Shown in pieces: positions 16,705 through 33,811 of a DNA stretch of 64,000 nucleotides. The DNA is from Candidatus Komeilibacteria bacterium RIFOXYD1_FULL_37_29 (GTDB lineage Bacteria; Patescibacteriota; Patescibacteriia; UBA1558; GWA2-36-10), in the NCBI GenBank assembly GCA_001818495.1, contig MHKS01000005.1, forward strand, positions 250,038 through 314,037, read 5' to 3'. Both the position numbers and the translations under genes were made by a program. The notes below the pieces were generated by a model. The model searched no databases. It was not told where the DNA came from and was given only the letters and a program-made list of their open reading frames with translations. The stretch's first letter is position 1. The number at the start of each line of letters is the position of its first letter.

Positions 16705-16764
16705 GCTACGGTCGAGGGAAAATAGTTATCCACTTGTGGGCTATTTTTTTTCATGTTAAGATCA

Positions 16765-16955
16765 TATTACTTTGACAATTCAATCAGGGAAGTGAGGTGT
16801 GAATCCTCTACAGTCCTAGCTACGGTAAGCTCCATGCAAGTATTATGGGGACAAGTCCGATACCTGAGATATTTGCTTTCTCCTAAGGAGAGAAGAGCTA
16901 AATTTATTAACCAATAACTTTAACTCTGCTTTTCTTAGGGCAGAGATTTTTTGTA
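16765..16955 (+). ncRNA. Cobalamin (B12) riboswitch aptamer with a downstream intrinsic terminator as expression platform
   Basis: Core GGGAAGTGAGGTGTGAATCCTCTACAGTCC...GCTACGGTAAG at 16787-16830 matches the conserved cobalamin-riboswitch core GGGAA..GGTG.GAATCC..C.G.C...GC.AC.GTAAG (compare E. coli btuB GGGAATCCAGTGCGAATCTGGAGCTGACGCGCAGCGGTAAGG). A B12-box-like AAGTCCGATACCTG lies at 16852-16866. A terminator hairpin CTCTGC-ttttcttagg-GCAGAG plus a T-run lies at 16925-16953. Confidence 0.75.
16925..16955 (+). terminator. Intrinsic terminator (riboswitch expression platform)
   Basis: Stem CTCTGC/GCAGAG with a 10-nt loop, followed by ATTTTTTG. Confidence 0.7.
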
Positions 16956-19426: not shown

Positions 19427-19596
19427 AGGGAGAGGTAGCAGATCCCGCGTAGCGGGACCCCGCTTTGCGGGGGTGGTTTAGAAATAGTAAGTTGATAATT
19501 TCATTTAGTTTTGGAGAGGTGGCAGCTCCCGCGCAGCGGGACCCCGCTTTGCGGGGGTGGTTTAGAAATAGTAAGTTGATAATTTCATTTAGTTTT
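19427..19596. repeat. Two tandem copies of a roughly 84-bp unit, each beginning with the first 9 nt of the adjacent tRNA (GGAGAGGTG) and containing GC-rich hairpins (CCCGCgcaGCGGG; CCCCGCtttGCGGGG)
   Basis: Copy A is about 19430-19512 and copy B 19513-19596. They are roughly 92% identical and directly abut the 5' end of tRNA-Ser. Confidence 0.8.
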
Positions 19597-19686
19597 GGAG
19601 AGGTGCTAGAGTGGTTGAATAGGGTGCTCTCGAAAAGCACTAGTCCTGAAAGGGACTCGGGGGTTCAAATCCCTCCCTCTCCGCCA
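19597..19686 (+). tRNA. tRNA-Ser (anticodon CGA), type II with a long variable arm, 3' CCA encoded
   Basis: GGAGAGGTG...acceptor, with the pairing CCTCTCC-G-CCA at the 3' end. D-loop AGAGTGGTTGAA. Anticodon loop CTCGAAA. Long extra arm. T-arm GGTTCAAATCC. Confidence 0.85.
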
Positions 19687-20035
19687 TCCTTCGCTAAAGC
19701 TACGGAATGACTAGCCATATGTTATATTATACTTACATTTTATTAAGCTCAAAATCTCATATTTTTTATTTTGGTTCAACGAATAATTTAAAAAATAGAT
19801 TGGAGCTGCATAATAGCGGCAAGGTAACATCAACTAAATCGCATATACCTTGGAAATTAGTTTGGTATTGTGTATTTGAAACGGAAAAACAGGCAAGAGA
19901 TTTTGAGCTTTATTTAAAAACAGGGTCAGGAAAATCTTTTGCTTATAAAAGACTTATTTCCGTGGCTTTAGAGAAGGATTTCAGGGAAGGGAGAATAGGT
20001 AGTCCGAAGCGGAAGCCTTAGCTTTTGCGAAGGAT
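19687..20035. mobile_element. 349-bp GIY-YIG mini-element inserted at the 3' end of tRNA-Ser. It is bounded by 16-bp imperfect terminal inverted repeats (TCCTTCGCTAAAGCTA / TAGCTTTTGCGAAGGA) and flanked by a 16-bp direct repeat of the tRNA 3' end (CCCTCCCTCTCCGCCA at 19671-19686; ACCTCCCTCTCCGCCA at 20036-20051).
   Basis: Repeats are read directly. TIR match is 15/16 and DR match 15/16. The only gene inside is the GIY-YIG ORF. Confidence 0.6.
19707..20021 (+). CDS. GIY-YIG nuclease-domain protein (YhbQ/Slx1-like, UPF0213 family)
   Basis: YYTYILLSSKSHIFYFGSTNNLKNRLELHN...TK...PWKLVWYCVFETEKQARDFELYLK matches the GIY-YIG core (GIY / YIG / R / E / N). Confidence 0.8.
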   Translation: MTSHMLYYTYILLSSKSHIFYFGSTNNLKNRLELHNSGKVTSTKSHIPWKLVWYCVFETEKQARDFELYLKTGSGKSFAYKRLISVALEKDFREGRIGSPKRKP

Positions 20036-20190
20036 ACCTCCCTCTCCGCCAGATTACCAAGTTTGAACCCAAGCAAAATAAGGGTTTTGTGCTATTGAAA
20101 AGCCGGTGTCCGAATAAGGTGCTGATTTTTTAAAATCCTTATCAAATGAGTAAATTTTTGGTAAAATAGAGTTAATAAGAATAGAATTAT

Positions 20191-22020
20191 ATGTCTAAAA
20201 AAATTGATTACGACAACTGGTCAAAAGATGAGATAATCAAGGAGATTAGGCGAATCAAAGAAACTACATACGGACTTGTGTGGCATCGCGACTTACCTGA
20301 GGAAAAAATTGATATTCTTATAAACCCAGATGCTCGGACTCCAAATGAAATGTTCCCTAACGAAATGGCGGGCAAGCCATTTCCAGTTTTGAAAGAGGCA
20401 AAAACAAAAACAATTGAGACTGATAAAAATAAGCCGACAAATATTTTGATTGAGGGTGATAATTATCATTCTCTTGCCGTTTTGAATTTTACTCATCAAG
20501 AAGCAATTGATTTGATTTACATTGATCCGCCTTACAATACTGGCCACAACGATTTTGTTTACAATGATAAAATTAAAAGCGGTTATGTTGTTAAAGATGA
20601 TCCATTTAGGCATAGTAAATGGATTTCTTTCATGGAAAAAAGGTTAAAACTCGCAAAAAATTTATTGAAATCGTCGGGTGTTATTTTTATTAGTATTGAC
20701 GACAATGAATTTGCTCCATTAAAAATGCTGTGTGACGAGATTTTTGATGAAAGTAATTTCATCTCTATGTTGTCAATTGAAAATAATCCTAAGGGACGGA
20801 AAAACTCCGATTTTATATCTATTTGTAATGATTATTGTCTTATATACGCTAAAGACAAAGGTAAAAGTTATTTTGTTGAAAATATTCCCAAACAAGCTGA
20901 CGACTTAACGATTGATGATAATGGAGACTATGTACACAATAGCGGCAAACGGGTCCTTGTTGGAGAAAATAAATTTAATCCGCTTGTAGAAGATTTTGAA
21001 TCAGCTAAGCATTATAGTGTTTATTACAATCAGACTGATAATAAAATTAAAATAGAGGTGGAAAAAAATATTCACGAGGCAAACAAAGATTTATTAAAAA
21101 ACGGATATAAAAGATACTATTCTTATTTTGGAGACAGATTTGTCTTGAATACTTATACAAAATCAAAAATCATAGAGCTTTTCGAAGATGAGGCTCTCGA
21201 ATTCAAAAATGGGAGTATATATGAAAAAAATTTCAGCACAACAATTAGACTAAAAAGTCTTGTTATCAATAAAAAATATGAGGCAGTAATAAATAATGAA
21301 AAAGCAGAATATCAAATAGATGTTAAAACGACTTCAGCGAAGACTGAATTAAAGGATATTTTCAACACTGACCAAATTCCATTTGATAACCCCAAGAATA
21401 TTGGTTTGATAAAATTATTGGTAACATTATTTGAAAATAAATCAATAACTATTTTAGATTTTTTTGCAGGATCGGGAACGACCGGGCATGCAGTCCTTGG
21501 TCAAAATAAAGAAGATGGAGGAAATCGACAATTTATTCTGTGCACGAATAATGAAAATAATATATGCACTGATATCTGCTATCCCCGTCTTGGAAAAGTT
21601 ATAAAGGGATATAAAAATTCAAGAAATGAAAAAATTGATGGTTTGGGTGGAAACCTGAGATATTTTACTGCTTATGACTTTGTAGAAGCTAAGGAAACAG
21701 ATAGAAACAAAAGAAAACTAGTAAACCAATCAACAGAAATGCTTTGCATTAAGGAAAATGCTTTTGAGCTTGTGCAAGAAGTTGAAGATTATAAAATCTT
21801 CAAGAATCATGATAAATATTTGGGAATTATTTTTCATGAAGATTCTATATCGGACTATGTCAAAGCAATAAAAAAGATAAAAGGACACTTTAATACTTAT
21901 ACATTTTCAATGACGGATGATCCTCACAAAGAGGAATTTACTGATGTTGCGGACAAAGTAACTCTTTGTGCAATTCCAGAAATGATTTTGAAAGTATATC
22001 ATGAGATTTTCAAGGAATAA
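20191..22020 (+). CDS. mod: Type III restriction-modification system, Mod subunit (N6-adenine DNA methyltransferase)
   Basis: Motif IV DPPY within LIYIDPPYNTGHNDFVYND. Motif I FFAGSGTTGHAV. 609 aa. Overlaps res by 20 nt. Confidence 0.85.
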   Translation: MSKKIDYDNWSKDEIIKEIRRIKETTYGLVWHRDLPEEKIDILINPDARTPNEMFPNEMAGKPFPVLKEAKTKTIETDKNKPTNILIEGDNYHSLAVLNFTHQEAIDLIYIDPPYNTGHNDFVYNDKIKSGYVVKDDPFRHSKWISFMEKRLKLAKNLLKSSGVIFISIDDNEFAPLKMLCDEIFDESNFISMLSIENNPKGRKNSDFISICNDYCLIYAKDKGKSYFVENIPKQADDLTIDDNGDYVHNSGKRVLVGENKFNPLVEDFESAKHYSVYYNQTDNKIKIEVEKNIHEANKDLLKNGYKRYYSYFGDRFVLNTYTKSKIIELFEDEALEFKNGSIYEKNFSTTIRLKSLVINKKYEAVINNEKAEYQIDVKTTSAKTELKDIFNTDQIPFDNPKNIGLIKLLVTLFENKSITILDFFAGSGTTGHAVLGQNKEDGGNRQFILCTNNENNICTDICYPRLGKVIKGYKNSRNEKIDGLGGNLRYFTAYDFVEAKETDRNKRKLVNQSTEMLCIKENAFELVQEVEDYKIFKNHDKYLGIIFHEDSISDYVKAIKKIKGHFNTYTFSMTDDPHKEEFTDVADKVTLCAIPEMILKVYHEIFKE

Positions 22021-24262
22021 TTATATGTCATGGATTAATTTTAAAAATTATCAAGAAACTGCAATCGATGAAATACGCGACAAGATTAATGCCCTGCTCA
22101 AAAAAGAGGGTAATAGACTTTGCGTATTCAAAGCTCCGACTGGTTCGGGGAAAACTTTAATGATGGCGGAATGGATGATGAGGTTTTGTGACCCATATTC
22201 GCGAATTGATGGGAAAACTTTTTCTTTTGTATGGATAGCAGTAAATAAATTACATGATCAAAGCCATGACAGTTTAAAAAAGTTTTATGAGCTCAAAGGA
22301 GCGGGGCTTCGTTGTTCATATTTTCACGAACTTGAGGATAGAAAAATAAAACAGAACGAGATTTTATTTTTGAATTGGGCAAGTATCAATAATGAAGACA
22401 AGATTATTGTTCGCGCGAATGAAAGAGATAATAATCTCTCAACAATAATTGATCGGACCAAAGATGCCAGTCGGACAATTATTTTGATTATCGACGAAAG
22501 CCACCATACCGCAAAAAGTAAAAATTCAAAGGCTTTAATAAAAAATATTGACCCTAAAATTACGATCGAGGTTTCTGCTACACCAGAAATTTTTGATTTT
22601 GATGAGCGGGTAACCATTGATATTGAGGATGTACGAAGCGAGGAAATGATAAAGAAAGAAATTGTAGTGAACCCTGGCTTCAAAAATTACACAGTTGATC
22701 CAAAAAAGAACGATCAAACAGCAGACGAATTAATCTTGAAGTCTGCTTTGCAAAAAAGGATTGATTTGCGAAAAAAATTAGAAAAAGATGGTTCAAATGT
22801 CAATCCCTTATTACTTATTCAATTACCGGATACAAAAAAAGGAGTTCCTGATAAAAAAGAGGAGATTGAAACACTTCTTGCTAAATTTGGCTATACAACA
22901 AAAAATGGAAAGTTGGCTGTCTATCTTTCTGAAAAAGATAACAAAATAAATCTTGCTAATATTGAGAAAAATGAAAACGAAGTGGAGGTAATGATGTTCA
23001 AGCAAGCGATTGCACTTGGTTGGGATTGTCCAAGAGCTACAATTCTTGTGCTTTTCCGTCAATGGAAAGATGAAACGATAACATTCTCAATCCAAACATT
23101 GGGAAGAATCATGCGTATGCCTGAGCAAAAACATTATAAAGATCAAGAGTTGAATATTGCTTATCTTTATACTAGTTTACAAGACATTAATACTCGTATT
23201 TTGAAAGGTGCTTCGTCGGGAATAAAATCTCTTACGAGTTATCGCAATGAGAAATATAAAAATATTGACCTAATTTCATATCACTCAAAACGATTCCGTG
23301 AGGAAACTCGTTTGTCTTCTGATTTTGTGAAAATTTTTATCGAAGCCGCTAAAAAAACAAATTTAAAAGATGTTTCGCTAAAAGTCGGGATTGTGAAAAC
23401 AACAATGATCAAAGATGGACGCGTGGAAAATGCGGATAAAGAAATAACAAAGATTGAAAGTGATACTTTTTCTATACCCAAAACAGAGACGGAGCTGCAA
23501 TATACTTTTGATATGTTTGTGCTTGATAATCTTGATCCGTTTGAACATGAAGCCCGTTCTATAAAACGCATAAACGATTCAATTTATACTTTCTTTGGCG
23601 CACGACGCAAAGAAGATGAATGGCCTAAAATACAAGCCACGATACTTTCGTATGAAAAGAATCGCCAAGCTGTAATTGATGCTATTAATCTAGCAAAAGA
23701 TTTATATAAAACCGAAGTTGGAAAAGGCAAAAAAGAACTGATACAAAATGATGAGCCGTGGAATGTGCCAGAAGCTATTAATTTTGATCCGTCATTTGTA
23801 GAGCAAAATTATAAAAAATCTATAATGCAACCATATTACGCTCGTTCTCGGGATGGAGAAAACGGACGATTGTTTGAGGACAGTGAAATTGAAAATGATT
23901 TTATTAAATACCTAGAAAAAGCACAGAAAGTTGTTTGGTGGTTCAGAAATGGGAAACAAGACGGATCATTTTTTGCTGTCCCGCACATTGAACACGGACA
24001 AGAAAAGCCGTTTTATGTTGATTTTATAGTTATGATGAAAAATGGAACTGTTGGGCTTTTTGATACAAAATCAGGATATACTGCCGAACTAGCAAAATCT
24101 CGCTCTGATGGACTTGTAAAATATATTAATGAGCAGAAAAAGAAAAAAATTACTGGCGGAATTGTGAGATACGAAAAGAAAAGTTGGCTATATTTTACTA
24201 ACAAAGAATATAAATATAATCCGAATGATATAAAGGATTGGGAATTTTTGGATTTGAATTAA
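22001..24262 (+). CDS. res: Type III restriction enzyme, Res subunit (SF2 helicase-nuclease)
   Basis: Walker A FKAPTGSGKT. DEAH box IIDESHH. 753 aa. Translationally coupled to mod. Confidence 0.85.
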   Translation: MRFSRNNYMSWINFKNYQETAIDEIRDKINALLKKEGNRLCVFKAPTGSGKTLMMAEWMMRFCDPYSRIDGKTFSFVWIAVNKLHDQSHDSLKKFYELKGAGLRCSYFHELEDRKIKQNEILFLNWASINNEDKIIVRANERDNNLSTIIDRTKDASRTIILIIDESHHTAKSKNSKALIKNIDPKITIEVSATPEIFDFDERVTIDIEDVRSEEMIKKEIVVNPGFKNYTVDPKKNDQTADELILKSALQKRIDLRKKLEKDGSNVNPLLLIQLPDTKKGVPDKKEEIETLLAKFGYTTKNGKLAVYLSEKDNKINLANIEKNENEVEVMMFKQAIALGWDCPRATILVLFRQWKDETITFSIQTLGRIMRMPEQKHYKDQELNIAYLYTSLQDINTRILKGASSGIKSLTSYRNEKYKNIDLISYHSKRFREETRLSSDFVKIFIEAAKKTNLKDVSLKVGIVKTTMIKDGRVENADKEITKIESDTFSIPKTETELQYTFDMFVLDNLDPFEHEARSIKRINDSIYTFFGARRKEDEWPKIQATILSYEKNRQAVIDAINLAKDLYKTEVGKGKKELIQNDEPWNVPEAINFDPSFVEQNYKKSIMQPYYARSRDGENGRLFEDSEIENDFIKYLEKAQKVVWWFRNGKQDGSFFAVPHIEHGQEKPFYVDFIVMMKNGTVGLFDTKSGYTAELAKSRSDGLVKYINEQKKKKITGGIVRYEKKSWLYFTNKEYKYNPNDIKDWEFLDLN

Positions 24263-24265
24263 ATT

Positions 24266-25450
24266 ATGGCATTAGAATCAGAAAAATTGGAAGAAAAAAT
24301 AGTTGATAATTATTTTACTGATACTCTATATAGTAGTCGGGAATTTAAGGGTGGAGTAGGTAAATTTTTTACAATAGTATCTCAGGATGAAAATGATATC
24401 CCAAATGTAGTTGATGTTGAGCATTCGTATCCTATACGCAATAAAATAAAGACAACGCTGACATTTATCAAAAAAGAAAACGAAATTACAGCCATTTCCT
24501 TTAAGCGTTTTAAATATTATAAAAAAGAACATTGGGTTGAACAACCAGAAGAACAGATTACTTTTTCATACAGTCTTTTTAAAAAAATTATTGGGTATTT
24601 ACAGTTACTATCAGAATTAAATTTGTCGGCTATTAGTGAGCGAAGAATTGCTTTAGCCGATGACACATTACCGAATATTGACGATGAAACAAAAAAGAAG
24701 ATTAAAACATTGCTTTTACGCAAAGATGGGCAAAAAATTATTGAGGAATTAATAAATAGCGGAATAATTACATCAACCGATATTGTAAATATCGGGTATC
24801 GAAAAAAACAACTTGATGTTTTTGAGAAGCTCCTGACACAACCCGATTATTTTGCAACCTATATAACTGAAAGTAAAATTACAGATACTCGTCATGAGTC
24901 TGTTTGGCAACATTTCTTCCATTCTAATGATTGGATTTTTGGATATGGACTAGATTATCGCTTTCTTGGCATCCTGCAAAAAGAAGCTCATATTTCAAAT
25001 ACAGACGTCGCAGGAAAAGGGGCTGTTATAAATGATTTTCTACTCGGGTGCAATAAATTCACCGTTTTGGTTGAATTAAAAAAACACGACACACCATTAT
25101 TTGGAAAAGACAAAAACCGGTCAAACTCTTGGACACTTTCAGATGATTTAATATCTGGTCTATCTCAAATATTAGAGCAAAAAGCTAGTTGGCAGGTTTC
25201 GGCCGAGACAAATGCAAGTGGAAATTTTGACGATAAGGGTAATTTGATAAAACAAAAAACTATCGATCCAAAAAGTATCTTAGTTATCGGATCAACAAAG
25301 CAATTTGATGGTGATGATAAAGAAAATCAAATTAAAGCAAAAACCTTTGAACTTTTTAGACGAGATTCAAGAAATATAGAAATTCTTACTTATGACGAAC
25401 TGTATGAGAGAGCGAAGTTTATTGTTGAACATAAACAGAAAGACAACTAG
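24266..25450 (+). CDS. Putative defense-associated PD-(D/E)xK nuclease, Shedu (SduA/DUF4263)-like
   Basis: 394 aa. Core AVINDFLLGCNKFTVLVELKK gives D...ELK, a PD-(D/E)xK signature. C-terminal KSILVIGST...IEILTYDELYERA resembles DUF4263 ends. Immediately downstream of Type III R-M. Confidence 0.4.
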   Translation: MALESEKLEEKIVDNYFTDTLYSSREFKGGVGKFFTIVSQDENDIPNVVDVEHSYPIRNKIKTTLTFIKKENEITAISFKRFKYYKKEHWVEQPEEQITFSYSLFKKIIGYLQLLSELNLSAISERRIALADDTLPNIDDETKKKIKTLLLRKDGQKIIEELINSGIITSTDIVNIGYRKKQLDVFEKLLTQPDYFATYITESKITDTRHESVWQHFFHSNDWIFGYGLDYRFLGILQKEAHISNTDVAGKGAVINDFLLGCNKFTVLVELKKHDTPLFGKDKNRSNSWTLSDDLISGLSQILEQKASWQVSAETNASGNFDDKGNLIKQKTIDPKSILVIGSTKQFDGDDKENQIKAKTFELFRRDSRNIEILTYDELYERAKFIVEHKQKDN

Positions 25451-25793: not shown

Positions 25794-26387
25794 ATGGATC
25801 AACAAACAATCAATACATACAACAGGATGTCACAAGAGTATGATGATGAAACAGCTGATTTTTGGGAGCGATTTCCTCGAACATTTCTTGATAAATTTAT
25901 TAAGCTATCCGGTAATAAAATACTTGATGTTGGGAGCGGACCAGGTAGAGATGGTTTGATACTTCAACAGGCCGGTAAAAATGTTGTCTGTGTGGATGCT
26001 TCTGCAGCAATGGTGAAATTGTCTTCAGACAGAGGTTTAAACTCTATAGTAGCCAGTTTCGACAATTTACCATTTGAAAATAATTCATTTGACGGCGTAT
26101 GGTCATATACTGCTCTTTTACATATTCCCAAAAAATCTATCGATACCCCTCTTCAAGAGATTTTTCGTATTATCAAACCTTCAGGTATTTTTGCTCTTGG
26201 TCTGATTGAAGGGGACACAGAAGGATACAAAGAAAGCTCTGAAGTGACTATGCCTCGTTGGTTTAGTTTCTATCAGAAAGACGAAGTTGAAAATTTATGC
26301 CAAAAGCACGGATTTGAGCTGGTTTACTTTGAGACTTTTAAACCAGGGTCCAAGCCCTATTTGAATTTTATTTTTCGAAAAATATAA
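25794..26387 (+). CDS. Class I SAM-dependent methyltransferase (Methyltransf_11-like)
   Basis: Motif I KILDVGSGPGRDGL. Acidic motif II VVCVDAS. 197 aa. Confidence 0.75.
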   Translation: MDQQTINTYNRMSQEYDDETADFWERFPRTFLDKFIKLSGNKILDVGSGPGRDGLILQQAGKNVVCVDASAAMVKLSSDRGLNSIVASFDNLPFENNSFDGVWSYTALLHIPKKSIDTPLQEIFRIIKPSGIFALGLIEGDTEGYKESSEVTMPRWFSFYQKDEVENLCQKHGFELVYFETFKPGSKPYLNFIFRKI

Positions 26388-26416: not shown

Positions 26417-26665
26417 TTTTCACTGTCTTTTCAGGCAGTTTTTTGGTATAATCAAAGCATTAATTAATAAAAATATTATGATTGACGAAGAAATAAAGCA
26501 AATTATTCAGGAAAATAAGGACACTTTGGCTAATATTGATAAAAGGATTGGTCGGATTGAGAAAAATTTTATTTGGAGTTCAATTTTTGGTTTTATAAAG
26601 ATTGTTATTATTGTAGCACCGATTGTTTTTGGTATTATTTATTTTACGCCATTTTTGAAAGATTT
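26417..26665. repeat. Left copy of a roughly 250-bp direct repeat (about 95% identical to 33399..33648). It carries an extended -10 promoter (TTTTGGTATAAT) and the 5' part of a small membrane-protein gene.
   Basis: Direct sequence comparison. Shared sequence runs from TTTTCACTGTCTTTTCAGGCAGTTTTTTGGTATAATCAAAG through ...TTTACGCCATTTTT. Confidence 0.9.
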
Positions 26666-26690
26666 AAATAAATTGGGTATTATTACATAA
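26478..26690 (+). CDS. Small membrane protein (70 aa). A truncated paralog/duplicate of 33461..33811.
   Basis: MIDEEIKQIIQENKDTLANIDKRIGRIEKNFIWSSIFGFIKIVII... is near-identical to the N-terminus of the 33461 ORF. It diverges where the DNA repeat ends. Confidence 0.6.
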   Translation: MIDEEIKQIIQENKDTLANIDKRIGRIEKNFIWSSIFGFIKIVIIVAPIVFGIIYFTPFLKDLNKLGIIT

Positions 26691-26707
26691 TTAAGAAATG
26701 GTAGTAT

Positions 26708-28426
26708 ATGAAAAAGTCAAAAGTCATATTAGGGATTACTGCCTTTAATCATGATTCTTCGGCGTGCTTAATTTATCAAGGTAGAGTAATTGCATTTTGT
26801 GAGGAGGAAAGATTCAATGGCATAAAACATACCGGAGATTTTCCGATAAAATCAATTTTATTTTGTTTAGAAAAAGCTGGTTTGTCATTAAATGATGTGA
26901 CTGATGTAGCTTTTTATTTTAATATTAAAAAATGTTTATTGAGTTATATAAAGAACAATAATCCACTCTATTATATTATTCATCCATCTTTATTTAAGAG
27001 GAAAAGATTTTATTATGAAATTATTTGGTTATTTAGTTTTATAAACAAAATTAATTCAATTAAAAAACTCCTTAATAATTATAAGATAAAGATTACTTAT
27101 GTAGATCATCATATGGCGCACGCTTGGTATGGGTATTTTTCTTCAAATTTTAAAAATTGCACGGTAGTTTCTAATGACAGCGTAGGCGAGAGTGTGAGTA
27201 GTTTAGCCGTAAAGATACAGAGAGAAGATAAAAAAATTATTTTTGGTAAGACATTCAGTCAAACAGACCCTCACTCTATTGGGTATTTGTATGGTGCTAT
27301 AACTGAATTTTTAGGATTCAAAAGAGGTCAAGACGAAGGAAAGGTTATGGCTATGGCGGCTTTAGGGAAAGATAAATATGTAAAATATTTTGATGACTTG
27401 ATTAGATATTTACCTAATGGGGAATTTAGAATAAGTAAGGAGTTGATTTCCTTACGTAATTTTCAGCCAAAATCACAAAGATTAAGCAATGATTTTTTAA
27501 AAAAATTTGGATATTATCGTCAACCCCAAGAACCATTTATCCAAAAGCATTATGATATTGCTTATGCAATACAAGGGGTAACGGAAAAAATTTTATATCA
27601 CCAATTAAAATATATTAATGATGATAATATAGTCATTACTGGTGGTATTGCTCAAAATAGTGTAGCCAACGGGAAACTCAACAATTTTTTTTATAAAAGA
27701 AATATATTTATTCCTCCGATTCCTAATGATGCCGGGTGTGGTATTGGCGCGGCGCTTTCTTTATATTATAAGTATTATGAAGATTTACCAGAGTTTGTGG
27801 ATACTGCGTTTTTAGGCCCAGAATTTTCTGATCATAAAATCATTAAAACATTAGAAAATAATAAAATAAATTTTAAAATTATAAAAAATCAGACGGAATT
27901 CATTATTAATGAGCTTTTGAAAAATAAGATTATCGCTATATATAGAAATGAGATGGAGTGTGGTCCTAGGGCATTAGGTAATAGGAGTATAATAGCCAAT
28001 CCAATTGATCCGGCGATGAAGAATTACATCAATGAAAAAATAAAACACCGTGAATTTTTTCAGCCATACGGCGGGTTGATTATTGATAAAAATGTTAAAG
28101 AAGTATTTGATTATAAGAATAAAAATATTTCCGGACCATATATGTCTTTTGTTTATCCAATTAAAGATAAATGGTTAAAAATGTTTCCATCTTTGGTTCA
28201 TTTTGATAAAACTTCTAGAATTCAAATAATAAAGAAGGAACAAAATTTTTTATATAGTCTCTTGGAAGAATTTTATAAAAAAACAGGTGTCCCCGTAATT
28301 ATAAATACTTCCCTTAATTTAAGAGGGCAGCCTATGGCAAGAAGCCATCAAGATGCTTTAAACACATTTTATAATTCGGGGATTCATTATATTTTATTTA
28401 ATAACAGTATTCTAGTTTCAAAATGA
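26708..28426 (+). CDS. NodU/CmcH-family carbamoyltransferase
   Basis: N-terminal KVILGITAFNHDSSACLIYQGRVIAFCEEERFNGIKHTGDFP matches the carbamoyltransferase N-domain (compare TobZ/NodU ...LG...HD.AAAL..DG.I.AA.EEERF.R.KH). A DHHMAHAWYGYF metal-binding motif is present. 572 aa. Confidence 0.85.
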   Translation: MKKSKVILGITAFNHDSSACLIYQGRVIAFCEEERFNGIKHTGDFPIKSILFCLEKAGLSLNDVTDVAFYFNIKKCLLSYIKNNNPLYYIIHPSLFKRKRFYYEIIWLFSFINKINSIKKLLNNYKIKITYVDHHMAHAWYGYFSSNFKNCTVVSNDSVGESVSSLAVKIQREDKKIIFGKTFSQTDPHSIGYLYGAITEFLGFKRGQDEGKVMAMAALGKDKYVKYFDDLIRYLPNGEFRISKELISLRNFQPKSQRLSNDFLKKFGYYRQPQEPFIQKHYDIAYAIQGVTEKILYHQLKYINDDNIVITGGIAQNSVANGKLNNFFYKRNIFIPPIPNDAGCGIGAALSLYYKYYEDLPEFVDTAFLGPEFSDHKIIKTLENNKINFKIIKNQTEFIINELLKNKIIAIYRNEMECGPRALGNRSIIANPIDPAMKNYINEKIKHREFFQPYGGLIIDKNVKEVFDYKNKNISGPYMSFVYPIKDKWLKMFPSLVHFDKTSRIQIIKKEQNFLYSLLEEFYKKTGVPVIINTSLNLRGQPMARSHQDALNTFYNSGIHYILFNNSILVSK

Positions 28427-29247
28427 TTAAAGATTTTCAAAAGATAGAGTTTTTAAAATCACTTTACAGTGATAAAGACTTAATATCGTTTCGTGGCAAT
28501 TTTTTAAAAAATAATTCCAACCGTAAATTCTCATTAAGATCTTTTATTATTAAACTTTTGCCGATGCTAAAGGATAAAAAAATATTAGACATTGGTTGCG
28601 GAGACGGGTCATTCCTCAATAAATTACATACGGTATATCCTCAAAATAAATATTTTGGTTTGGATGTAGTAGATAATGCTAAATGCCATAAATTGAAATT
28701 TCTTGACTACAAAATTTATGATGGTAAATCCAGGGTTTATTATACGGAAAAATTTGATGTGATATTTTGTATGCACACTGTTTATCATATCGAAGATTTA
28801 TTCACTTTTTTTACAACGATGAAAGACTATTTAAAGCCCCATGGCATTATTATCATTACTACGAAGTCTAAATTGACTTTTCCTAAAATAGAATCAATCT
28901 TTTTAAAGATTGTCGGTAAGCTTGACTTAAAAAAATATTTAAAAATTAGCAAACACAGAGAGGAATCAAAATTTTGTTTGGAGAACGGATTAAACAGATT
29001 AAAAAAACACTTCGCTAGGCGGTCATTTAGTATAAATGAGTATGTTTTAGAAACGCAGGTTTTTGTTAATGACAAAAAAGATCTTTTGAAATATGTTTTT
29101 TCTACAAATAGATATAATATTTTGAAAGATACTTTAAACAAAAAAATTGTTGAAAAATATACAAAACTTTGGTTTGAAGAAATTGATAAAGATCAGATAT
29201 TCATTGATAAATATACGGAGGCTGTTTATTTAATAAAAAAATTATGA
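28423..29247 (+). CDS. SAM-dependent methyltransferase
   Basis: Motif I KILDIGCGDGSFLNKL. D-x motif KYFGLDVVD. Start overlaps the upstream stop by 4 nt. Confidence 0.7.
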   Translation: MIKDFQKIEFLKSLYSDKDLISFRGNFLKNNSNRKFSLRSFIIKLLPMLKDKKILDIGCGDGSFLNKLHTVYPQNKYFGLDVVDNAKCHKLKFLDYKIYDGKSRVYYTEKFDVIFCMHTVYHIEDLFTFFTTMKDYLKPHGIIIITTKSKLTFPKIESIFLKIVGKLDLKKYLKISKHREESKFCLENGLNRLKKHFARRSFSINEYVLETQVFVNDKKDLLKYVFSTNRYNILKDTLNKKIVEKYTKLWFEEIDKDQIFIDKYTEAVYLIKKL

Positions 29248-30311
29248 AAATAGGTTATAGTTGCTGGGGATTTTTGGGTAACGGAATAAAGGATACACCG
29301 GATGGCGGGAGGAGTCACCGGTTGACTTTATTGAAAGAATTAATCCGTCAAGGAGTTGAAATAGTAATGTTGCAAAAGAATAGAGACCTCATTGAAGGCA
29401 ATCAAAGTTTTTCACGAAAGAATTTAATATTTAGTGGTGAGTTACCGGAAATAGATGCTCTATTTGTAGAATATAGATGGAAGATAGTAGGAAGGAATTA
29501 TAAGGTGAGAAAAAATAATCCAGCCTATACTCCGGATTTCGATAGACAGAGTGAATTAATTAATTTTTATAATAATAGAAATATTCCTATTATTATTTGG
29601 GATAAAGATCAGAAACTTGGTAAGAATGAAATAAAAGGCATTAAAAATTTGATTGTATTTGAACCTGCTTTAAAGCCAAGGTTTAATAGAAAAAGTTTAT
29701 TGTTTCCGATGGACAATCATAGAACAAAAATTGTCCTCAAATTGATAGGTAAGTATAAAAAAAATATTAAGAGCTCCAAGTTGTGTTACATTGGAAATCA
29801 ATATGAGAGAGATGGTAGTTTTAAAGAGTTTATTAATAAGCCAGCCAGTATGCTCGATACCAAAACACCAGTATTTGGTAATTGGAACAAATATCCAGAA
29901 AAGTATAAGCAAAATATGCAAAAATTTTCCAATGTTGAATTTAAAGGTAGGGTGCAGTTTAATAAAGTTAATAATATTTATAAAAAATCTTTTTCTACAG
30001 TTCTTATCGCGCCACGGAGATATTATATCACGGGTCATTTTACACAAAGATTATTTGAGGCAATGTGGGGCTTATGCATTCCTTTTACCCCGCAGCAATA
30101 TCATGGATGGCAGGGTTTAATAATAAAAGATTTTATAATTAGATCTGGCAAAGATTTAATAAATAAGATAAAAAAATTAGAAACAACGCCCGATTCAGAT
30201 ATAAGGAGAATGTTTGATAGACAGTTTGAGAAACTTAATTTATTTAATGCCAGTAAACAAGCCAGTATAATTATAAACGAAATCAATAATCATAATGGTA
30301 GACTCGGGTAA
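29244..30311 (+). CDS. T4 beta-glucosyl-HMC-transferase-like (BGT-family GT-B) putative DNA glycosyltransferase
   Basis: Comparison with the recalled T4 BGT sequence shows collinear matches. MKIGYSCWGFLGNG vs MKIAIINMGNNVIN. RLTLLKELIRQGVEIVMLQKN vs IYLFKVISEMGLNVDIISLKN. CYIGNQYERDGSF vs IYGGSFRSGQRE. TKTPVFGNWNKYP vs TKAPVFTGKIP. FTQRLFEAM vs ITLRVWETM. 355 aa versus 351 aa for T4 BGT. Confidence 0.55.
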   Translation: MKIGYSCWGFLGNGIKDTPDGGRSHRLTLLKELIRQGVEIVMLQKNRDLIEGNQSFSRKNLIFSGELPEIDALFVEYRWKIVGRNYKVRKNNPAYTPDFDRQSELINFYNNRNIPIIIWDKDQKLGKNEIKGIKNLIVFEPALKPRFNRKSLLFPMDNHRTKIVLKLIGKYKKNIKSSKLCYIGNQYERDGSFKEFINKPASMLDTKTPVFGNWNKYPEKYKQNMQKFSNVEFKGRVQFNKVNNIYKKSFSTVLIAPRRYYITGHFTQRLFEAMWGLCIPFTPQQYHGWQGLIIKDFIIRSGKDLINKIKKLETTPDSDIRRMFDRQFEKLNLFNASKQASIIINEINNHNGRLG

Positions 30312-31074
30312 TAAAAATAAATCTTTAGAAATTGTAATTGATTCTAAACACTATATTAAAAAAAGATATTCTGATATCCAACGTTTTTTTTGTGAATTAA
30401 AATATCTTAAATATTTTAAAGATGAAGATATCAATGTTCCTTTTATATATAAATTTGATAAAATCCAAAAAACAATAATAATAGATAAAATAAAGGGGAA
30501 AATCGGCGATTCATTAAATAATAGAGACACAAAACTATGCATTGATGTGCTTGTCAAAATAATTTTTATTTTTGGTTTGGAAAAGAAAAATAATAATGAA
30601 ATTGATAGGTATATTTCAAAAGTCAGGTCAAATATAATATGGTGGTGTGAAAATAATAATTATATAGTAGAAAAAGAAAAATTAAATATTTTACTTCAAA
30701 AGTTAAGAAAAGTGTGTTATATATCTTTATTCAAAGATGCCAAACCATCTAATTGGATTTTTCAAAAAGATAAAATATACGCAATAGACTTTGATTATGT
30801 AAAAAAATCATTTTTTTTAGCAGATTTAGCACAACTTTTAAGTTATATTTCATTAAGGAAAAAAATAAGTTATATTTTCTTTGTAAATTATTATCTAAAG
30901 CAAATATTCCCAAAAATGAAGGATTATGATAAATTTTATATACCTTTTAAATTAGCGCTTGTTAATTCCAACATTGCTTCTGAACTTCACAGAGAGAATT
31001 TAGGAGCCTATGTAAAAAGGGGTTTTGCCAAACAAAACAGGTTTATTTTGAGTGAATTTAAGATAATATTATAA
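30295..31074 (+). CDS. Atypical protein-kinase-like (Kdo/WaaP/RIO-type) small-molecule kinase
   Basis: Catalytic-loop-like FKDAKPSNWIF (D-x-K-P-x-N) and a metal-binding IYAIDFDYV (DFD) motif. 259 aa. Confidence 0.4.
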   Translation: MVDSGNKNKSLEIVIDSKHYIKKRYSDIQRFFCELKYLKYFKDEDINVPFIYKFDKIQKTIIIDKIKGKIGDSLNNRDTKLCIDVLVKIIFIFGLEKKNNNEIDRYISKVRSNIIWWCENNNYIVEKEKLNILLQKLRKVCYISLFKDAKPSNWIFQKDKIYAIDFDYVKKSFFLADLAQLLSYISLRKKISYIFFVNYYLKQIFPKMKDYDKFYIPFKLALVNSNIASELHRENLGAYVKRGFAKQNRFILSEFKIIL

Positions 31075-31955
31075 TGTCAATATCAATAACCGCCAAATCA
31101 GCTAATGAAGCATTCATTAAAATAGCTGATAAATTGTATAATAATCCGGAATATGTTTCTAGTCCTCGAAGCTGGGAAACAAGGGAGTTATTAGGGGCTT
31201 TTATTGTTATCAACAATCCCTATGATCGTTTTATAAATAATGTTCATAGGAAGATTTCTTTAAAGTATCTTATTGGTGAATGGTTATGGTATGAGCGAGG
31301 ATCCAATTCTTTAAATGAAATTAATTATTATGCAAAATTTTGGAGCAGTATTTCGGATGATAAAATAACTGCCAATTCAGCTTATGGTCATAGAATTTTA
31401 GGGATCAATAAGTTCGTGATTATTAATCAATGGAAGTGGGCCAAACGGCAAATAATAAAAGATAAGGAAACAAGGAGAGCCATCATTTTTATTGGATTGC
31501 CAAGTGATATGAAAAACGAAACGAAAGATTTTCCTTGCACTATGTCACTCCAGTTTTTAATAAGAAATAATGAGTTACATTTAATTTGCAATATGAGGAG
31601 CAATGATTTAGTATTGGGTTTTACTTATGATGTAGCTACCTTTACTTTATATCAAGAAAAAATGTTGTTGGAGTTGAAAAAATATTATCCAAAATTAAAG
31701 ATAGGTAAATATTTTCATATGGTAGGCAGTTTACACGTATATAAGAAAAACTATGAGATGATAAAAAAAGTGATAAATGATCAGGACAATAATTTGAAAA
31801 TTACCATGCCTCGCATGGGTGATTTAAAAGAAATAAAAAAACTCCAGTATAACGAGAGTATTATAAGAGAAAATAAAAATAAAAAGTTTAAAAAAATTGA
31901 AGATAGATTCTGTATCTGGTGTCAGAATATTTTATTAAATAAAATTAAATACTAA
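31074..31955 (+). CDS. Thymidylate-synthase-family pyrimidine-nucleotide C5 (hydroxy)methylase with predicted dCMP specificity (deoxycytidylate hydroxymethylase-like)
   Basis: Collinear with E. coli ThyA. KYLIGEWLWYERG vs RSIIHELLWFLQG. The YG loop is conserved. RRAII vs RRIIV. FPCTMSLQFLIRNNELHLICNMRSNDLVLGFTYDVATF vs [38 protein letters not shown]. The catalytic Cys is present. The Asn that reads O4/N3 of dUMP (E. coli N177) is Asp here, as in T4 dCMP hydroxymethylase (Asp179). Confidence 0.7.
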   Translation: MSISITAKSANEAFIKIADKLYNNPEYVSSPRSWETRELLGAFIVINNPYDRFINNVHRKISLKYLIGEWLWYERGSNSLNEINYYAKFWSSISDDKITANSAYGHRILGINKFVIINQWKWAKRQIIKDKETRRAIIFIGLPSDMKNETKDFPCTMSLQFLIRNNELHLICNMRSNDLVLGFTYDVATFTLYQEKMLLELKKYYPKLKIGKYFHMVGSLHVYKKNYEMIKKVINDQDNNLKITMPRMGDLKEIKKLQYNESIIRENKNKKFKKIEDRFCIWCQNILLNKIKY

Positions 31956-31956
31956 A

Positions 31957-32628
31957 ATGAAAGGCATAATTATAGACGGAGTTGTTTCTTCTGGTAAAAC
32001 GTCTATCTTAAAACATCTTCATCGTCTGATTTCAGAACAAAACCCTACTTCAACCAAGTTTTTTATTAGTGAACACTATACTGAGAGAATGTTGGAGCAT
32101 TTGAAAGATAAAGGTGAATTAGACGGTAGCCATATAAAAGCCCACGTTGATCAGTTAATCCATACTTTAGCTTCTTTTCAGTCTATGTTGGATAATTCTA
32201 AGTTTCGTGATAACCCGAAAGGAGCAGATTTGTTTGTTACTTTAGAAAGATTTATTCTAACCCATTTGTCCTCAGTGGACATAGGAGATAAATATAGTCT
32301 TGATGAAGTCAAAGCTCATTTTGAAATTTTAAACAAGCTAGGAGTAAAACAAGTAGCTTTAATAATTCCCGAATCAAGACTAAAAGAAAATATCATGTCG
32401 ACTCTGCAATATCGAAATGACGCCTGGTTGGATTATTTGTATTCTAGGGGTGGAGAAAAAGAAATTATAGAATATTATATCAATTGGCAGAATAATTTTT
32501 TAGAGTATATCAACAAATTTAAAGATATAATAGATACCTTAGTCATCGAAGTAAAAGATCAAGACTATCTTCAATATAGTAATACTATTTTTAATAGTTG
32601 TATTAAATCAGATATTCTCTCAAAATAA
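31957..32628 (+). CDS. P-loop nucleoside/deoxynucleoside monophosphate kinase-like protein
   Basis: N-terminal Walker A MKGIIIDGVVSSGKTSILKHL. 223 aa. The position after the ThyA-like gene mirrors phage dNMP kinases. Confidence 0.45.
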   Translation: MKGIIIDGVVSSGKTSILKHLHRLISEQNPTSTKFFISEHYTERMLEHLKDKGELDGSHIKAHVDQLIHTLASFQSMLDNSKFRDNPKGADLFVTLERFILTHLSSVDIGDKYSLDEVKAHFEILNKLGVKQVALIIPESRLKENIMSTLQYRNDAWLDYLYSRGGEKEIIEYYINWQNNFLEYINKFKDIIDTLVIEVKDQDYLQYSNTIFNSCIKSDILSK

Positions 32629-33114
32629 ATGTTTTTTAATTTTATGTTTTTTATACTTTACCCCGGCTAAATCAAAGAGTTTTTTAGAAACGATAAAATT
32701 ATTCGCATCTTTGTCTGATCTATCATCTTGATAGATTATATTTTTTATGCCGCTTTGGATAATAATTTTTGCACACTCATTGCAGGGGAAGAGTAAACAG
32801 TAAAGTTTTGCATTTTCGGCTGATTGATTAGTATTTAAAATGGCATTTACTTCAGCGTGAACAACATACGGATATTTTGTATTTAAGATATTTTTTTTGT
32901 TATGCCCGTAATTATTACTCCAAGAAAAATGCCCTTCCTTAATACCTCTAGGCCAACCGTTGTAGCCAACTCCTAAAACAACATTATTTTTATCAACCAC
33001 GACAGCTCCGGTTTGAGTTGATGGGTCTTTTGATCTCTGAGCTATAACTTGAGCCATTAGCATAAATGTTTCATCCCACGATAAATAGTTTTTTCTAGCT
33101 TTTATATTATCCAT
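32620..33114 (-). CDS. Deoxycytidylate (dCMP) deaminase
   Basis: Zinc site HAEVNAI and PCNECAKII (cytidine/deoxycytidylate deaminase signature). 164 aa. Convergent with the kinase gene. Confidence 0.85.
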   Translation of the reverse strand: MDNIKARKNYLSWDETFMLMAQVIAQRSKDPSTQTGAVVVDKNNVVLGVGYNGWPRGIKEGHFSWSNNYGHNKKNILNTKYPYVVHAEVNAILNTNQSAENAKLYCLLFPCNECAKIIIQSGIKNIIYQDDRSDKDANNFIVSKKLFDLAGVKYKKHKIKKHLF

Positions 33115-33398
33115 TTTTGTAGGTTAGATCACTTTATAAGAATATAATACCCCATACTTATCTTAAAAGTCAAAGATTATAACTATTATTTTTATGTCGA
33201 AACTAGTCAACAAACTAAAACCGAGAAAAATTTTTGGTTGTCAGAAAGAAGCTTGAATAATATAGGCAAGAAAGAGAGTTTTATTATAATGCTCGGAGGA
33301 GATATGTGAAATATTATGAACCAAACATTTAATTCGCAATGATTACTGGTTGTTCTATATAAAAAGATAGAGCCGTTAGTGTTAGTTGACGATTTCTG

Positions 33399-33648
33399 TT
33401 TTTCACTGTCTTTTCAGGCAGTTTTTTGGTATAATCAAAGCATTAATTAATAAAAATATTATGATTGACGAAGAAATAAAGCAAATTATTCAGGAAAATA
33501 AGGAAACTTTAGCTAATATTGATAAAAGAATTGGTCGGATTGAGAAAAATTTTATTTGGAGTTCAATTTTTGGTTTTGTAAAGATTGTTATTATTTTAGG
33601 GCCGATTATTTTTGGTATTATTTATTTTACGCCATTTTTAAAAGATTT
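33399..33648. repeat. Right copy of the roughly 250-bp direct repeat (see 26417..26665), including promoter TTTTGGTATAAT
   Basis: Direct comparison. Confidence 0.9.
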
Positions 33649-33811
33649 TATTCGTATTTATGAACCATTTTTCAAGAATCTACCGATTACTTTACAAAAT
33701 TTAAACAATCCTTCTTCGGACTCAAATATTCCAACTGGCGCTCAGGCTGGGTTAGAAAATTTTTGTGATCCACAAGTTCGCGAGGCCATGATCGATAGTC
33801 TTTGTAAATAA
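33461..33811 (+). CDS. Small membrane protein (117 aa). The full-length version of the duplicated gene.
   Basis: Starts MIDEEIKQIIQENKETLANIDKRIGRIEKNFIW... 12 nt after an A-rich stretch downstream of TGGTATAAT. The ORF track begins earlier at 33386, but the ATG at 33461 matches the paralog. Confidence 0.55.
   Translation: MIDEEIKQIIQENKETLANIDKRIGRIEKNFIWSSIFGFVKIVIILGPIIFGIIYFTPFLKDFIRIYEPFFKNLPITLQNLNNPSSDSNIPTGAQAGLENFCDPQVREAMIDSLCK

Follow-up and report, generated by a model that had tools for sequence, protein, structure and literature searches.

A mobile cassette in candidate phyla radiation bacteria joins a predicted dCMP hydroxymethylase and a T4 beta-glucosyltransferase-like enzyme to a carbamoyltransferase and a methyltransferase

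Pre-replicative hypermodification of cytosine, built on a hydroxymethylase, a kinase and a DNA glycosyltransferase, is regarded as a phage invention against restriction. The known systems nearest to the locus described here are T4-type glucosylation of 5-hydroxymethylcytosine (5hmC, or hmC), RB69-type arabinosylation of 5-hydroxycytosine (5hoC), and the MilA and BcmA pathways of mildiomycin and bacimethrin. The arabinosyl-5-hydroxycytosine pathway is that of phages RB69 and DLP3 (Lee et al., NAR 2026, PMC13326640), and a validated 5hmC carbamoyltransferase makes 5-carbamoyloxymethylcytosine, 5cmC (Yang et al., eLife 2021, PMC8670742). Here we analyze a 64,000-nucleotide (nt) stretch of DNA, the window, from Candidatus Komeilibacteria bacterium RIFOXYD1_FULL_37_29 (assembly GCA_001818495.1, contig MHKS01000005.1, positions 250,038 to 314,037), and within it a seven-gene cassette headed by a carbamoyltransferase gene and a methyltransferase gene. 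The window is part of the cellular chromosome of a candidate phyla radiation (CPR) bacterium and not of a phage; its genes include those for YbeY, FtsA, FtsZ, NrdR, PrfB, ComEC and nucleoside diphosphate kinase (NDK) as well as a ribosomal-protein operon, and the cassette glycosyltransferase has a 100% identical counterpart in Candidatus Komeilibacteria bacterium RIFOXYC1_FULL_37_11 (CPR/Patescibacteria).

From position 26708 onward, six same-strand genes with overlapping stops and starts form an operon, in the order carbamoyltransferase, S-adenosylmethionine (SAM)-dependent methyltransferase, glycosyltransferase of GT-B fold and of the T4 DNA beta-glucosyltransferase (BGT) family, kinase of aminoglycoside phosphotransferase (APH)/choline-kinase fold, thymidylate synthase (TS) homologue and small P-loop kinase, and are followed by a convergent gene for a deoxycytidine monophosphate (dCMP) deaminase. 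These seven genes make up a discrete insertion of about 6.7 kb with the lowest G+C content in the window (27-30% vs 36-42% in the flanks), and a 249-nt direct repeat, 96% identical between its copies and spaced by 6983 nt, encloses exactly these seven, with the deaminase gene inside and a stand-alone methyltransferase gene (25794-26387) outside. The features, including their open reading frames (ORFs), are as follows.

26417-26665, no strand: left copy of the 249-nt repeat, with a terminator-like hairpin at 26422-26439 and the duplicated 5' part of a small membrane-protein gene (ORF 26478-26690)
26708-28426, + strand: O-carbamoyltransferase of the NodU/CmcH/TobZ type, 572 amino acids, its N-terminal domain Kae1-like and its C-terminal one YrdC-like, with carbamoyl phosphate and ATP as predicted substrates
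28423-29247, + strand: class I SAM-dependent methyltransferase, 274 amino acids, of the small-molecule O-/N-methyltransferase type
29244-30311, + strand: GT-B glycosyltransferase of the T4 DNA beta-glucosyltransferase kind, a new subfamily with the motif 'DTPDGGRSHR'
30295-31074, + strand: small-molecule (hydroxyl) kinase of APH/choline-kinase/Bud32 fold, with catalytic loop 'DAKPSN' and Mg motif 'DFD'
31074-31955, + strand: TS homologue, predicted dCMP C5-hydroxymethylase (5-hydroxymethyl-dCMP synthase)
31957-32628, + strand: small P-loop kinase, Walker A 'GVVSSGKTS', conserved in CPR-type cassettes at 27-45% identity
32620-33114, - strand: dCMP deaminase with zinc motifs HAE and PCxxC
33400-33648, no strand: right copy of the 249-nt repeat, with the same hairpin at 33405-33422, overlapping the 5' part of the intact ORF 33386-33811

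A phage-type hmC core is joined to three sugar-type tailoring enzymes in a compact mobile unit carried by cellular genomes, very small CPR genomes among them. That the carbamoyltransferase and methyltransferase serve as tailoring enzymes in a pathway to an hmC-glycoside is, in our view, highly probable. The best explanation for the cassette, which we give an even chance, is that it builds a decorated glycosyl-5-hydroxymethyl-deoxycytidine whose sugar is tailored by these two genes, and the case for the product ending up in DNA appears to us evenly balanced. The target could be the cell's own DNA or any DNA that replicates in the cell, which fits the location of the cassette in a defence island. 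An earlier note on this DNA had identified the NodU/CmcH/TobZ-type carbamoyltransferase and the SAM methyltransferase and had placed them in one operon with BGT-like and dCMP-hydroxymethylase-like genes; these points are borne out by Pfam, PHROG 1601 and PDB matches together with catalytic motifs for the first enzyme and by class I Pfam families and motif I for the second, with scores well above what chance would give, and by gene linkage in 76 of the 80 best-matching bacterial loci for the operon.

The TS homologue matches Pfam Thymidylat_synt (E 5e-22), with its catalytic C146 in 'DFPCT', and its best matches in PDB are MilA (1.5e-30) and T4 dCMP hydroxymethylase (1.3e-17), above every canonical TS. 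Numbered as in E. coli ThyA, it features E58, W80, Y94, R126, R127, L143D, C146 and H147T, followed by R166, S167, C168N, D169, N177D, H207 and Y209; the named residues stand at their expected numbers, which supports the numbering. Published work assigns N177D to a cytosine substrate and L143D/E to a hydroxymethyl product through water access (PMC13326640, PMC8670742), D169N to 5-hydroxy-dCMP synthases (PMC13326640), and Arg126/Ser167 to a deoxyribose preference, MilA and BcmA having Lys/Ala and a ribo preference (PMC5175136). The D169N of 5-hydroxy-dCMP synthases of the RB69 gp48 type is absent from the window protein and from all homologues in sets of 6, 23 and 75, which keep D169, and D143, C146, D169 and D177 are kept by all homologous hydroxymethylases examined. 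Because N177D, L143D, D169, R126 and S167 fit these published assignments, the enzyme is predicted to be a 5-hydroxymethyl-dCMP (5hm-dCMP) synthase, acting on dCMP, giving a hydroxymethyl product and belonging to the deoxy type.

For the glycosyltransferase, a profile of the 46-sequence family searched against the whole PDB returned T4 BGT as its sole match (E 2.5e-8), in which R269/E272 align to the UDP-binding R269/E272 of BGT and 'TQRxxE' to 'TLRVWE'. The AlphaFold2 model of the protein has a GT-B fold (predicted local distance difference test, pLDDT, 94; predicted template-modelling score, pTM, 0.91), and the top Foldseek matches in PDB are the T4 BGT structures 1qkj, 1c3j and 1j39 (E 2e-10 to 9e-10, TM about 0.6; best match E 2.4e-10), with other GT-B enzymes close behind. 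An invariant E76 lies in the family segment 'LFVEYRW', which resembles 'LFTDIRL' of BGT, and may be a counterpart of the catalytic base Asp100 of that enzyme. The N-terminal, acceptor half of the protein is better conserved than the donor half, both among viral members (median identity 35% vs 24%) and among genomic ones (45% vs 31%, median identity to the window protein), with about 28 positions of the N-domain reaching 90% conservation or more over the viral and genomic enzymes together. This conservation, together with the occurrence of the viral relatives in DNA-polymerase/hydroxymethylase modules, lends indirect support to 5hmC in duplex DNA as a possible acceptor. A fold search in BFVD was non-discriminating and returned generic phage GT-B proteins.

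The carbamoyltransferase ORF shares 4 nt with the methyltransferase ORF that follows it, and its product contains both domains of the two-domain architecture at full length (Carbam_trans_N, PF02543, E 1.2e-41, profile positions 2-346 of 346; Carbam_trans_C, PF16861, E 3.6e-54, positions 3-168 of 170). It matches PHROG 1601, 'Nol-like carbamoyltransferase', with an E of 1.7e-112, and in PDB it matches 7xb6 (9e-66), GdmN (2e-56), NovN (7e-56) and TobZ (3e-51), without being a NodU equivalog (NCBIfam NF041651, 129 bits vs a cut-off of 1000). In an alignment of 20 sequences of its clade, H134, H138, D157, D341, G419-R426, K446/R448/E449 and N533-N537 are invariant, and the metal ligands among them (H134, H138, D157, D341) as well as the motifs GPRALGNRS, KxRE and NTSxN align to 7xb6. 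Enzymes of the TobZ/NovN/GdmN/NodU type usually have sugar or polyketide hydroxyls as acceptors. The validated 5hmC carbamoyltransferase is far more distant, with 22% identity, 57 bits and E 7e-13, whereas small-molecule carbamoyltransferases score 175-226 bits against the window enzyme. Yang et al. flag W408, G421 and R423 of TobZ as differentially conserved positions (PMC8670742); at the equivalent positions, mapped with 7xb6 and its W(+13)G(+2)R spacing, the window enzyme has I411, G424 and R426 and the validated one I, C and T, so that they agree at the first position alone. The motif 'GPRALGNRS' accordingly reads 'GPRALCNTT' in the validated enzyme, and the whole cassette clade keeps G and R ('LGNRS') where the latter has C and T ('LCNTT'). 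By these sequence features the window enzyme is small-molecule O-carbamoyltransferase-like and not of the 5hmC-enzyme type. Among viral carbamoyltransferases, the 80 closest to the cassette clade do not exceed 35% identity to it, and only 1 of these has a TS neighbour; a scan of IMG/VR with the single carbamoyltransferase sequence gave no match.

We place the carbamoyl group on the sugar because the single 5-CH2OH of the base cannot hold both a glycosyl and a carbamoyl group, because glycosyltransferase and carbamoyltransferase co-occur in 76 of 80 loci, and because the carbamoyltransferase resembles TobZ, NovN and GdmN and not the 5hmC enzyme; it probably acts on the sugar. The earlier note had left a choice between a carbamoylated and/or methylated glucosyl-hmC and carbamoyloxymethyl-C, and had called the chemistry undescribed. 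Decoration of a sugar on hmC is the favoured half of that choice, the enzyme type that makes carbamoyloxymethyl-C being unmatched here, and carbamoyloxymethyl-C itself was described in 2021 (PMC8670742).

The methyltransferase stands directly after the carbamoyltransferase, an arrangement kept in CPR-type cassettes. It carries motif I ('LDIGCGDG') and matches Pfam Methyltransf_23/31/11/12/25 with E values of 4e-16 to 6e-9 (best Methyltransf_23, 3.6e-16), and its PDB matches are phosphoethanolamine N-methyltransferase and UbiG. It matches generic class I small-molecule families and none of the DNA-methyltransferase families, N6/N4 or C5. The APH-fold kinase has weak matches to Pfam APH and NCBIfam Bud32, its motifs are conserved in 16 homologues, and its AlphaFold2 model (pLDDT 91) has as best PDB matches aminoglycoside phosphotransferases, amicoumacin kinase, choline kinase and Bud32.

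The P-loop protein is a putative nucleotide kinase. It has no significant match in Pfam, PHROG or PADLOC, and the profile of its family gives only weak matches in PDB, to uridine-kinase-like and NRK P-loops; its phmmer matches were de novo designed proteins and were set aside as spurious. CPR cassettes, actinomycete clusters and phage loci each have a small P-loop kinase in the same position, and when the CPR family is compared with the actinomycete and viral families by hhalign, only the Walker A region aligns. As the three families share this region alone, the same kinase role was apparently filled independently, and the independent filling of a gp1-like role by P-loop kinases gives modest support to a route through the pool of deoxynucleoside triphosphates (dNTPs). 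The dCMP deaminase is well matched (Pfam dCMP_cyt_deam_1, E 2.4e-23; PHROG 174, 6.7e-39) and adjoins the cassette also in the CPR loci L001/L002, L003, L005, L038 and L203.

A pathway can be drawn from these assignments. The TS homologue, going by its active-site residues, would convert dCMP to 5hm-dCMP, while the dCMP deaminase may balance or feed the pyrimidine pool in the manner of T4 cd. The P-loop kinase would raise 5hm-dCMP to the diphosphate and the host NDK (39382-39960) to the triphosphate, which the host polymerase could place in DNA. The BGT-family enzyme, by its homology and its viral relatives, would then glycosylate the 5-CH2OH. Finally, the carbamoyltransferase (with carbamoyl phosphate and ATP), the SAM methyltransferase and the APH-fold kinase would decorate sugar hydroxyls, either on the transferred sugar or acceptor or on the nucleoside-diphosphate (NDP)-sugar donor, and relatives may add a sulfate with a sulfotransferase.

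The cassette is, on comparative grounds, a self-contained and horizontally mobile unit. A second copy, L203 (6940 nt, from another metagenome), has 84% nucleotide identity limited to window positions 26651-33105, with different flanks and genomic context and with its own 37-nt flanking repeat (L203 positions 12-48 and 6882-6918); because the homology covers the unit only, with other flanks and another repeat, the cassette moves as a block. In the window, the 249-nt flanking repeat is a duplicated target sequence, made of the hairpin and the 5' part of the small membrane-protein gene. No integrase or transposase gene lies inside the cassette, and no empty insertion site was found: every contig with an identical PrfB has either a filled site or a break at the repeat, and same-strain assemblies break at the 249-nt repeat. 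Many metagenomic contigs that bear the cassette measure about 7 kb, a length probably due to assembly breaks at the flanking repeats, and a circular element was rejected since the contigs of this size have no terminal overlap. Among the five cassette proteins scanned (carbamoyltransferase, glycosyltransferase, both kinases and hydroxymethylase), none matched a known defence model of PADLOC-DB v2. The isoelectric point (pI) was tried as an indicator of DNA binding; with one exception the cassette proteins are basic (pI 9.4-10), but the measure was discarded as uninformative because the genome is AT-rich and the actinomycete values are distorted by over-long ORF calls. Upstream of an 84%-identical copy of the cassette, outside the homology, positions 170-577 of L204 hold an ORF of 135 amino acids with weak similarity to nucleoside 2-deoxyribosyltransferases. 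The superfamily of these enzymes includes the MilB/BcmB-type N-glycosidases of hydroxymethyl-CMP, so the ORF could matter for an account in which the product is soluble.

When one genome per species was scanned, 306 species proved to have the glycosyltransferase, and gene neighbours were counted within 10 kb in the best 80 loci. The carbamoyltransferase and the TS-like hydroxymethylase are each present in 76/80, the small P-loop kinase in 69, the methyltransferase in 67, the APH-type kinase and an epimerase in 66 each, and a histidine phosphatase and a second APH in 50 each; no transporter or pathway regulator is conserved over these loci, an ABC ATPase occurring in 4/80. Most carriers among the best 80 belong to Streptomyces, Kitasatospora, Micromonospora and other actinomycetes, with CPR lineages as well, and the clade closest to the window comes from CPR, Rickettsiales, Amoebophilaceae and Bdellovibrionales metagenome-assembled genomes. 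Actinomycete versions are larger, with a second APH, His_Phos, HAD, NUDIX, epimerase and CTP_transf_3 genes, and at least some 300 bacterial species have a larger version of the cluster (306 with the glycosyltransferase, best 80 examined). The same genes make up CPR-type cassettes in Paceibacterota, Woesebacteria, Saccharibacteria (L038, with the same seven genes) and unassigned contigs; one of them lies on an 819-kb contig, and some CPR versions start with a HAD phosphatase gene. A Sulfotransfer_3 gene of about 380 codons, absent from the window cassette, lies between the kinase and hydroxymethylase genes in L001/L003/L005 (about 14.3-15.5 kb), L053, L051, L055, L084 and L105, and its presence makes a sulfated variant of the product likely in those relatives. 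Two glycosyltransferase loci (L095 and L114) were found on different contigs of Streptomyces tanashiensis JCM 4086.

In Agrobacterium tumefaciens (L008, QSNR01000020.1) the cluster is followed by an ABC ATPase gene and two ABC-2 membrane genes, and the DeoR, SBP_bac_5, permease and GDPD genes around it look like an acc-like region for the uptake and catabolism of agrocinopine. A link to agrocin 434, the disubstituted cytidine nucleoside for which a plasmid of Agrobacterium K84 carries the genes, found no support: the Agrobacterium glycosyltransferase (P0172) had no tblastn match in 72,556 PLSDB plasmids.

Relatives of the glycosyltransferase are also viral. In IMG/VR we found 27 viral loci with such a relative, 23 of them with a hydroxymethylase within 10 kb and none with a carbamoyltransferase, methyltransferase or APH kinase, and in the two inspected closely (L018 and L020) the glycosyltransferase gene follows those for a phage family-B DNA polymerase and a thymidylate-kinase-like protein, beside NDP-sugar epimerase genes. 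Searches by tblastn of 50,697 cultured-phage records with the window enzyme and two viral glycosyltransferases gave no match. In the collections searched, the joint occurrence of a hydroxymethylase, a BGT-like glycosyltransferase and a carbamoyltransferase is therefore a trait of cells.

How far the cassette product may be a DNA component has to be weighed above all against a soluble nucleoside or nucleotide natural product, an antibiotic or antiviral analogue, secreted or intracellular, for which 5hm-dCMP would be glycosylated, carbamoylated, methylated and either phosphorylated or dephosphorylated in free form and never polymerised. Such a metabolite or antiviral nucleotide is a serious rival, given the small-molecule-like tailoring enzymes, the phosphatase and NUDIX genes, the exporter and the lack of a dCTPase or nuclease, and we regard it as a tentative possibility on the unlikely side. 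The carbamoyltransferase is closest to 7xb6 and the antibiotic-tailoring GdmN, NovN and TobZ, the methyltransferase has relatives of the small-molecule type, the kinase shares the aminoglycoside, amicoumacin and choline kinase fold of enzymes acting on free small molecules, and the closest solved relative of the TS homologue is MilA, of mildiomycin biosynthesis. The additional genes of actinomycetes, the majority of carriers and antibiotic producers, are as in a biosynthetic gene cluster, and those for HAD, histidine-phosphatase and NUDIX proteins fit dephosphorylation to a free nucleoside; some CPR versions headed by a HAD phosphatase gene likewise favour a soluble product, and the adjacent ABC exporter genes of the Agrobacterium version point the same way. 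Further points weigh against a product in DNA: the cassette has no dCTPase, nuclease or reader partner, the P-loop protein fits no dNMP-kinase family by phmmer or family profile, the glycosyltransferase has no Pfam match at E <= 0.01 even to the T4 glucosyltransferase family, and its BGT profile match (E 2.5e-8) is remote and covers the C-terminal domain only. Several carriers, among them NZ_CP172448.1, NZ_CP109551.1 and NZ_CP107734.1, moreover have complete assembled chromosomes, which by inference argue against massive constitutive DNA hypermodification in them. Against a soluble product stands the deoxy signature of the hydroxymethylase (R126 and S167, vs the K and A of the ribo-type MilA and BcmA), and to our knowledge MilA and BcmA are the sole hydroxymethylases known from nucleoside antibiotics. 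Likewise, the glycosyltransferase is of the BGT kind and has an acceptor domain in common with enzymes of phage replication modules, no transporter or regulator accompanies the 80 loci consistently, the dCMP deaminase and small P-loop kinase fit dNTP supply, and the cassette sits in genomes of less than 1 Mb, within a defence island. No natural product with this scaffold is known to us and literature searches gave none, which also counts against this rival.

Two further explanations bear on the acceptor of the carbamoyl group. Direct carbamoylation of 5hmC to 5-carbamoyloxymethyl-cytosine, with the glycosyltransferase serving another acceptor or a subset of residues, would draw on the same pairing of a carbamoyltransferase with an Asp177 TS homologue that lay behind the discovery of 5cmC, by an enzyme that accepted single-stranded DNA, RNA and 5hm-dCTP (PMC8670742), and on the Ile shared by window and validated enzymes at the TobZ W408 equivalent. 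This is quite improbable in view of the far better scores to small-molecule enzymes, the G/R retained by the clade in place of C/T, the near-constant company of a glycosyltransferase competing for the same hydroxyl, and the rarity of TS neighbours among the nearest viral carbamoyltransferases. Least probable, to a degree that leaves it hardly any weight, is modification of a cell-envelope glycan or glycolipid in the manner of Nod factors or lipopolysaccharide, with the nucleotide genes nearby by coincidence: glycans are classically decorated by NodU/NolO-type carbamoyltransferases, sulfotransferases and O-methyltransferases, the 'Nol-like' carbamoyltransferases of phages (PHROG 1601) are classed as auxiliary metabolic genes, and some homologues of the glycosyltransferase carry a CgeB-like Pfam domain (PF13524), but the linkage to a cytosine-specific hydroxymethylase is tight in 76/80 loci across phyla, the unit moves as one block including the dCMP deaminase, the cassette has no membrane, flippase or polyprenyl-phosphate genes, and in PDB the glycosyltransferase has a DNA glucosyltransferase as its sole relative by sequence.

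Assembly of a decorated glycosyl-5-hydroxymethyl-deoxycytidine is the reading we prefer. Its furthest extension is that cells, namely CPR bacteria and many actinomycetes, pre-replicatively hypermodify DNA, their own or any replicating in the cell, with carbamoylated, methylated and phosphorylated glycosyl-hmC, in relatives also sulfated, as a mobile protection or anti-phage module; we consider this extension unlikely as it stands. If true, it would bring hmC-glycan hypermodification of DNA to cells for the first time and give the first case of a carbamoylated sugar on DNA. Should the product be in DNA, hypermodified DNA would extend to cells, with new carbamoyl, methyl, phosphate or sulfate groups on a DNA-linked sugar, and this would matter for restriction and defence biology, sequencing artefacts and 5hmC enzyme tools; should it be soluble, the clusters would represent a widespread uncharacterised family of deoxycytidine-derived metabolites or antiviral nucleotides. 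Cultivable carriers exist in Streptomyces tanashiensis JCM 4086, Kitasatospora phosalacinea NRRL B-16228 and Micromonospora sp. WMMD729.

Around the cassette, a low-G+C island spans from tRNA-Ser (19597-19686) to prfB and contains, in order, a GIY-YIG ORF, a type III restriction-modification pair (Mod and Res), Shedu SduA, the stand-alone methyltransferase and the cassette. The type III restriction-modification and Shedu genes directly upstream of the cassette are a tRNA-adjacent defence island. Features of this region and the host NDK gene used in the proposed pathway are the following.

19707-20021: lone GIY-YIG ORF, enclosed by an 18-nt repeat of tRNA-Ser(CGA)
20191-25450: type III restriction-modification pair (Mod, 609 amino acids; Res, 753 amino acids) and Shedu SduA (PADLOC E 2e-154)
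25794-26387: stand-alone class I methyltransferase, 197 amino acids, just outside the left 249-nt repeat, with a weak PADLOC 'mad2' match
39382-39960: host NDK

The 3' 18 nt of tRNA-Ser(CGA) (19669-19686) recur at 20034-20051 with 17/18 bases, and the GIY-YIG ORF between them looks like a small insertion at the tRNA-Ser 3' end. Immediately upstream of tRNA-Ser, positions 19429-19596 consist of two tandem 84-nt copies, 96% identical, both with GC-rich hairpin-like segments and neither with an Rfam match. Methyltransferases weakly similar to the stand-alone one (24-27% identity) occur near the L003 and L005 cassettes, and it may be a loosely associated eighth component. Farther upstream, a cobalamin riboswitch (16745-16885; Rfam RF00174, 34.4 bits) precedes a gene for a 599-amino-acid protein (17038-18837) with prenyltransferase-like alpha-alpha toroid and DUF4430 domains, which may have a role in B12 binding or uptake. 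A giant ORF (77-10813, 3578 amino acids) encodes a T4SS-pilin N-terminus and Ig-like repeats (He_PIG, Big_5) and is followed by genes for two TSP3-repeat proteins; such giant Ig-repeat/TSP3 genes are typical of CPR surface or attachment machinery.

Compared with the T4 pathway (gp42, the dNMP kinase gp1, cd and BGT), the cassette has the same four roles, starts likewise at the mononucleotide with a pre-replicative logic, and has a hydroxymethylase with L143D and N177D. Unlike T4, it resides on cellular chromosomes, has neither a dCTPase nor an alpha-glucosyltransferase, uses a kinase that is not recognisably gp1-like and a glycosyltransferase of a distant subfamily without Pfam match, and adds three tailoring enzymes (carbamoyltransferase, methyltransferase and APH-fold kinase). 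With the 5hmC carbamoyltransferase of Yang et al. it shares Carbam_trans_N and Carbam_trans_C, the pairing with an Asp177 TS homologue (here in the same operon) and the expected carbamoyl phosphate and ATP chemistry, whereas the cassette enzyme, at 22% identity, is encoded in a bacterial chromosome rather than a phage contig and has as its partner a glycosyltransferase expected to take up the same hydroxyl. TobZ, NovN, GdmN and NodU are its best sequence matches (E 1e-50 to 1e-66), alike in the two full domains and the catalytic motifs, yet it is an equivalog of none of them, and its partners are nucleotide-modifying and not aminoglycoside, ansamycin or Nod-factor genes. MilA and BcmA have in common with the window protein the cytosine-specific Asp177, Asp143 and a place in cellular multi-gene clusters, but their Lys133 and Ala176 denote a ribo preference where the window protein has Arg and Ser (PMC5175136), and the cassette lacks an N-glycosidase of the MilB/BcmB type. 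The RB69/DLP3 pathway similarly gathers a TS homologue, a dNMP kinase, NDP-sugar genes and DNA glycosyltransferases in one hypermodification cluster, but its 5-hydroxy-dCMP synthases have D169N where D169 stands in the window enzyme and in each of 98 homologues, and its glycosyltransferases are unrelated in sequence. In the open-access literature we found the 2021 phage 5cmC paper and phage glycosylation papers and no description of such a bacterial cluster. Overall, none of the nearest known systems unites a dCMP hydroxymethylase, a glycosyltransferase of the BGT kind, a canonical O-carbamoyltransferase, a methyltransferase and an APH-fold kinase, and none of them is a mobile cassette in cellular genomes.

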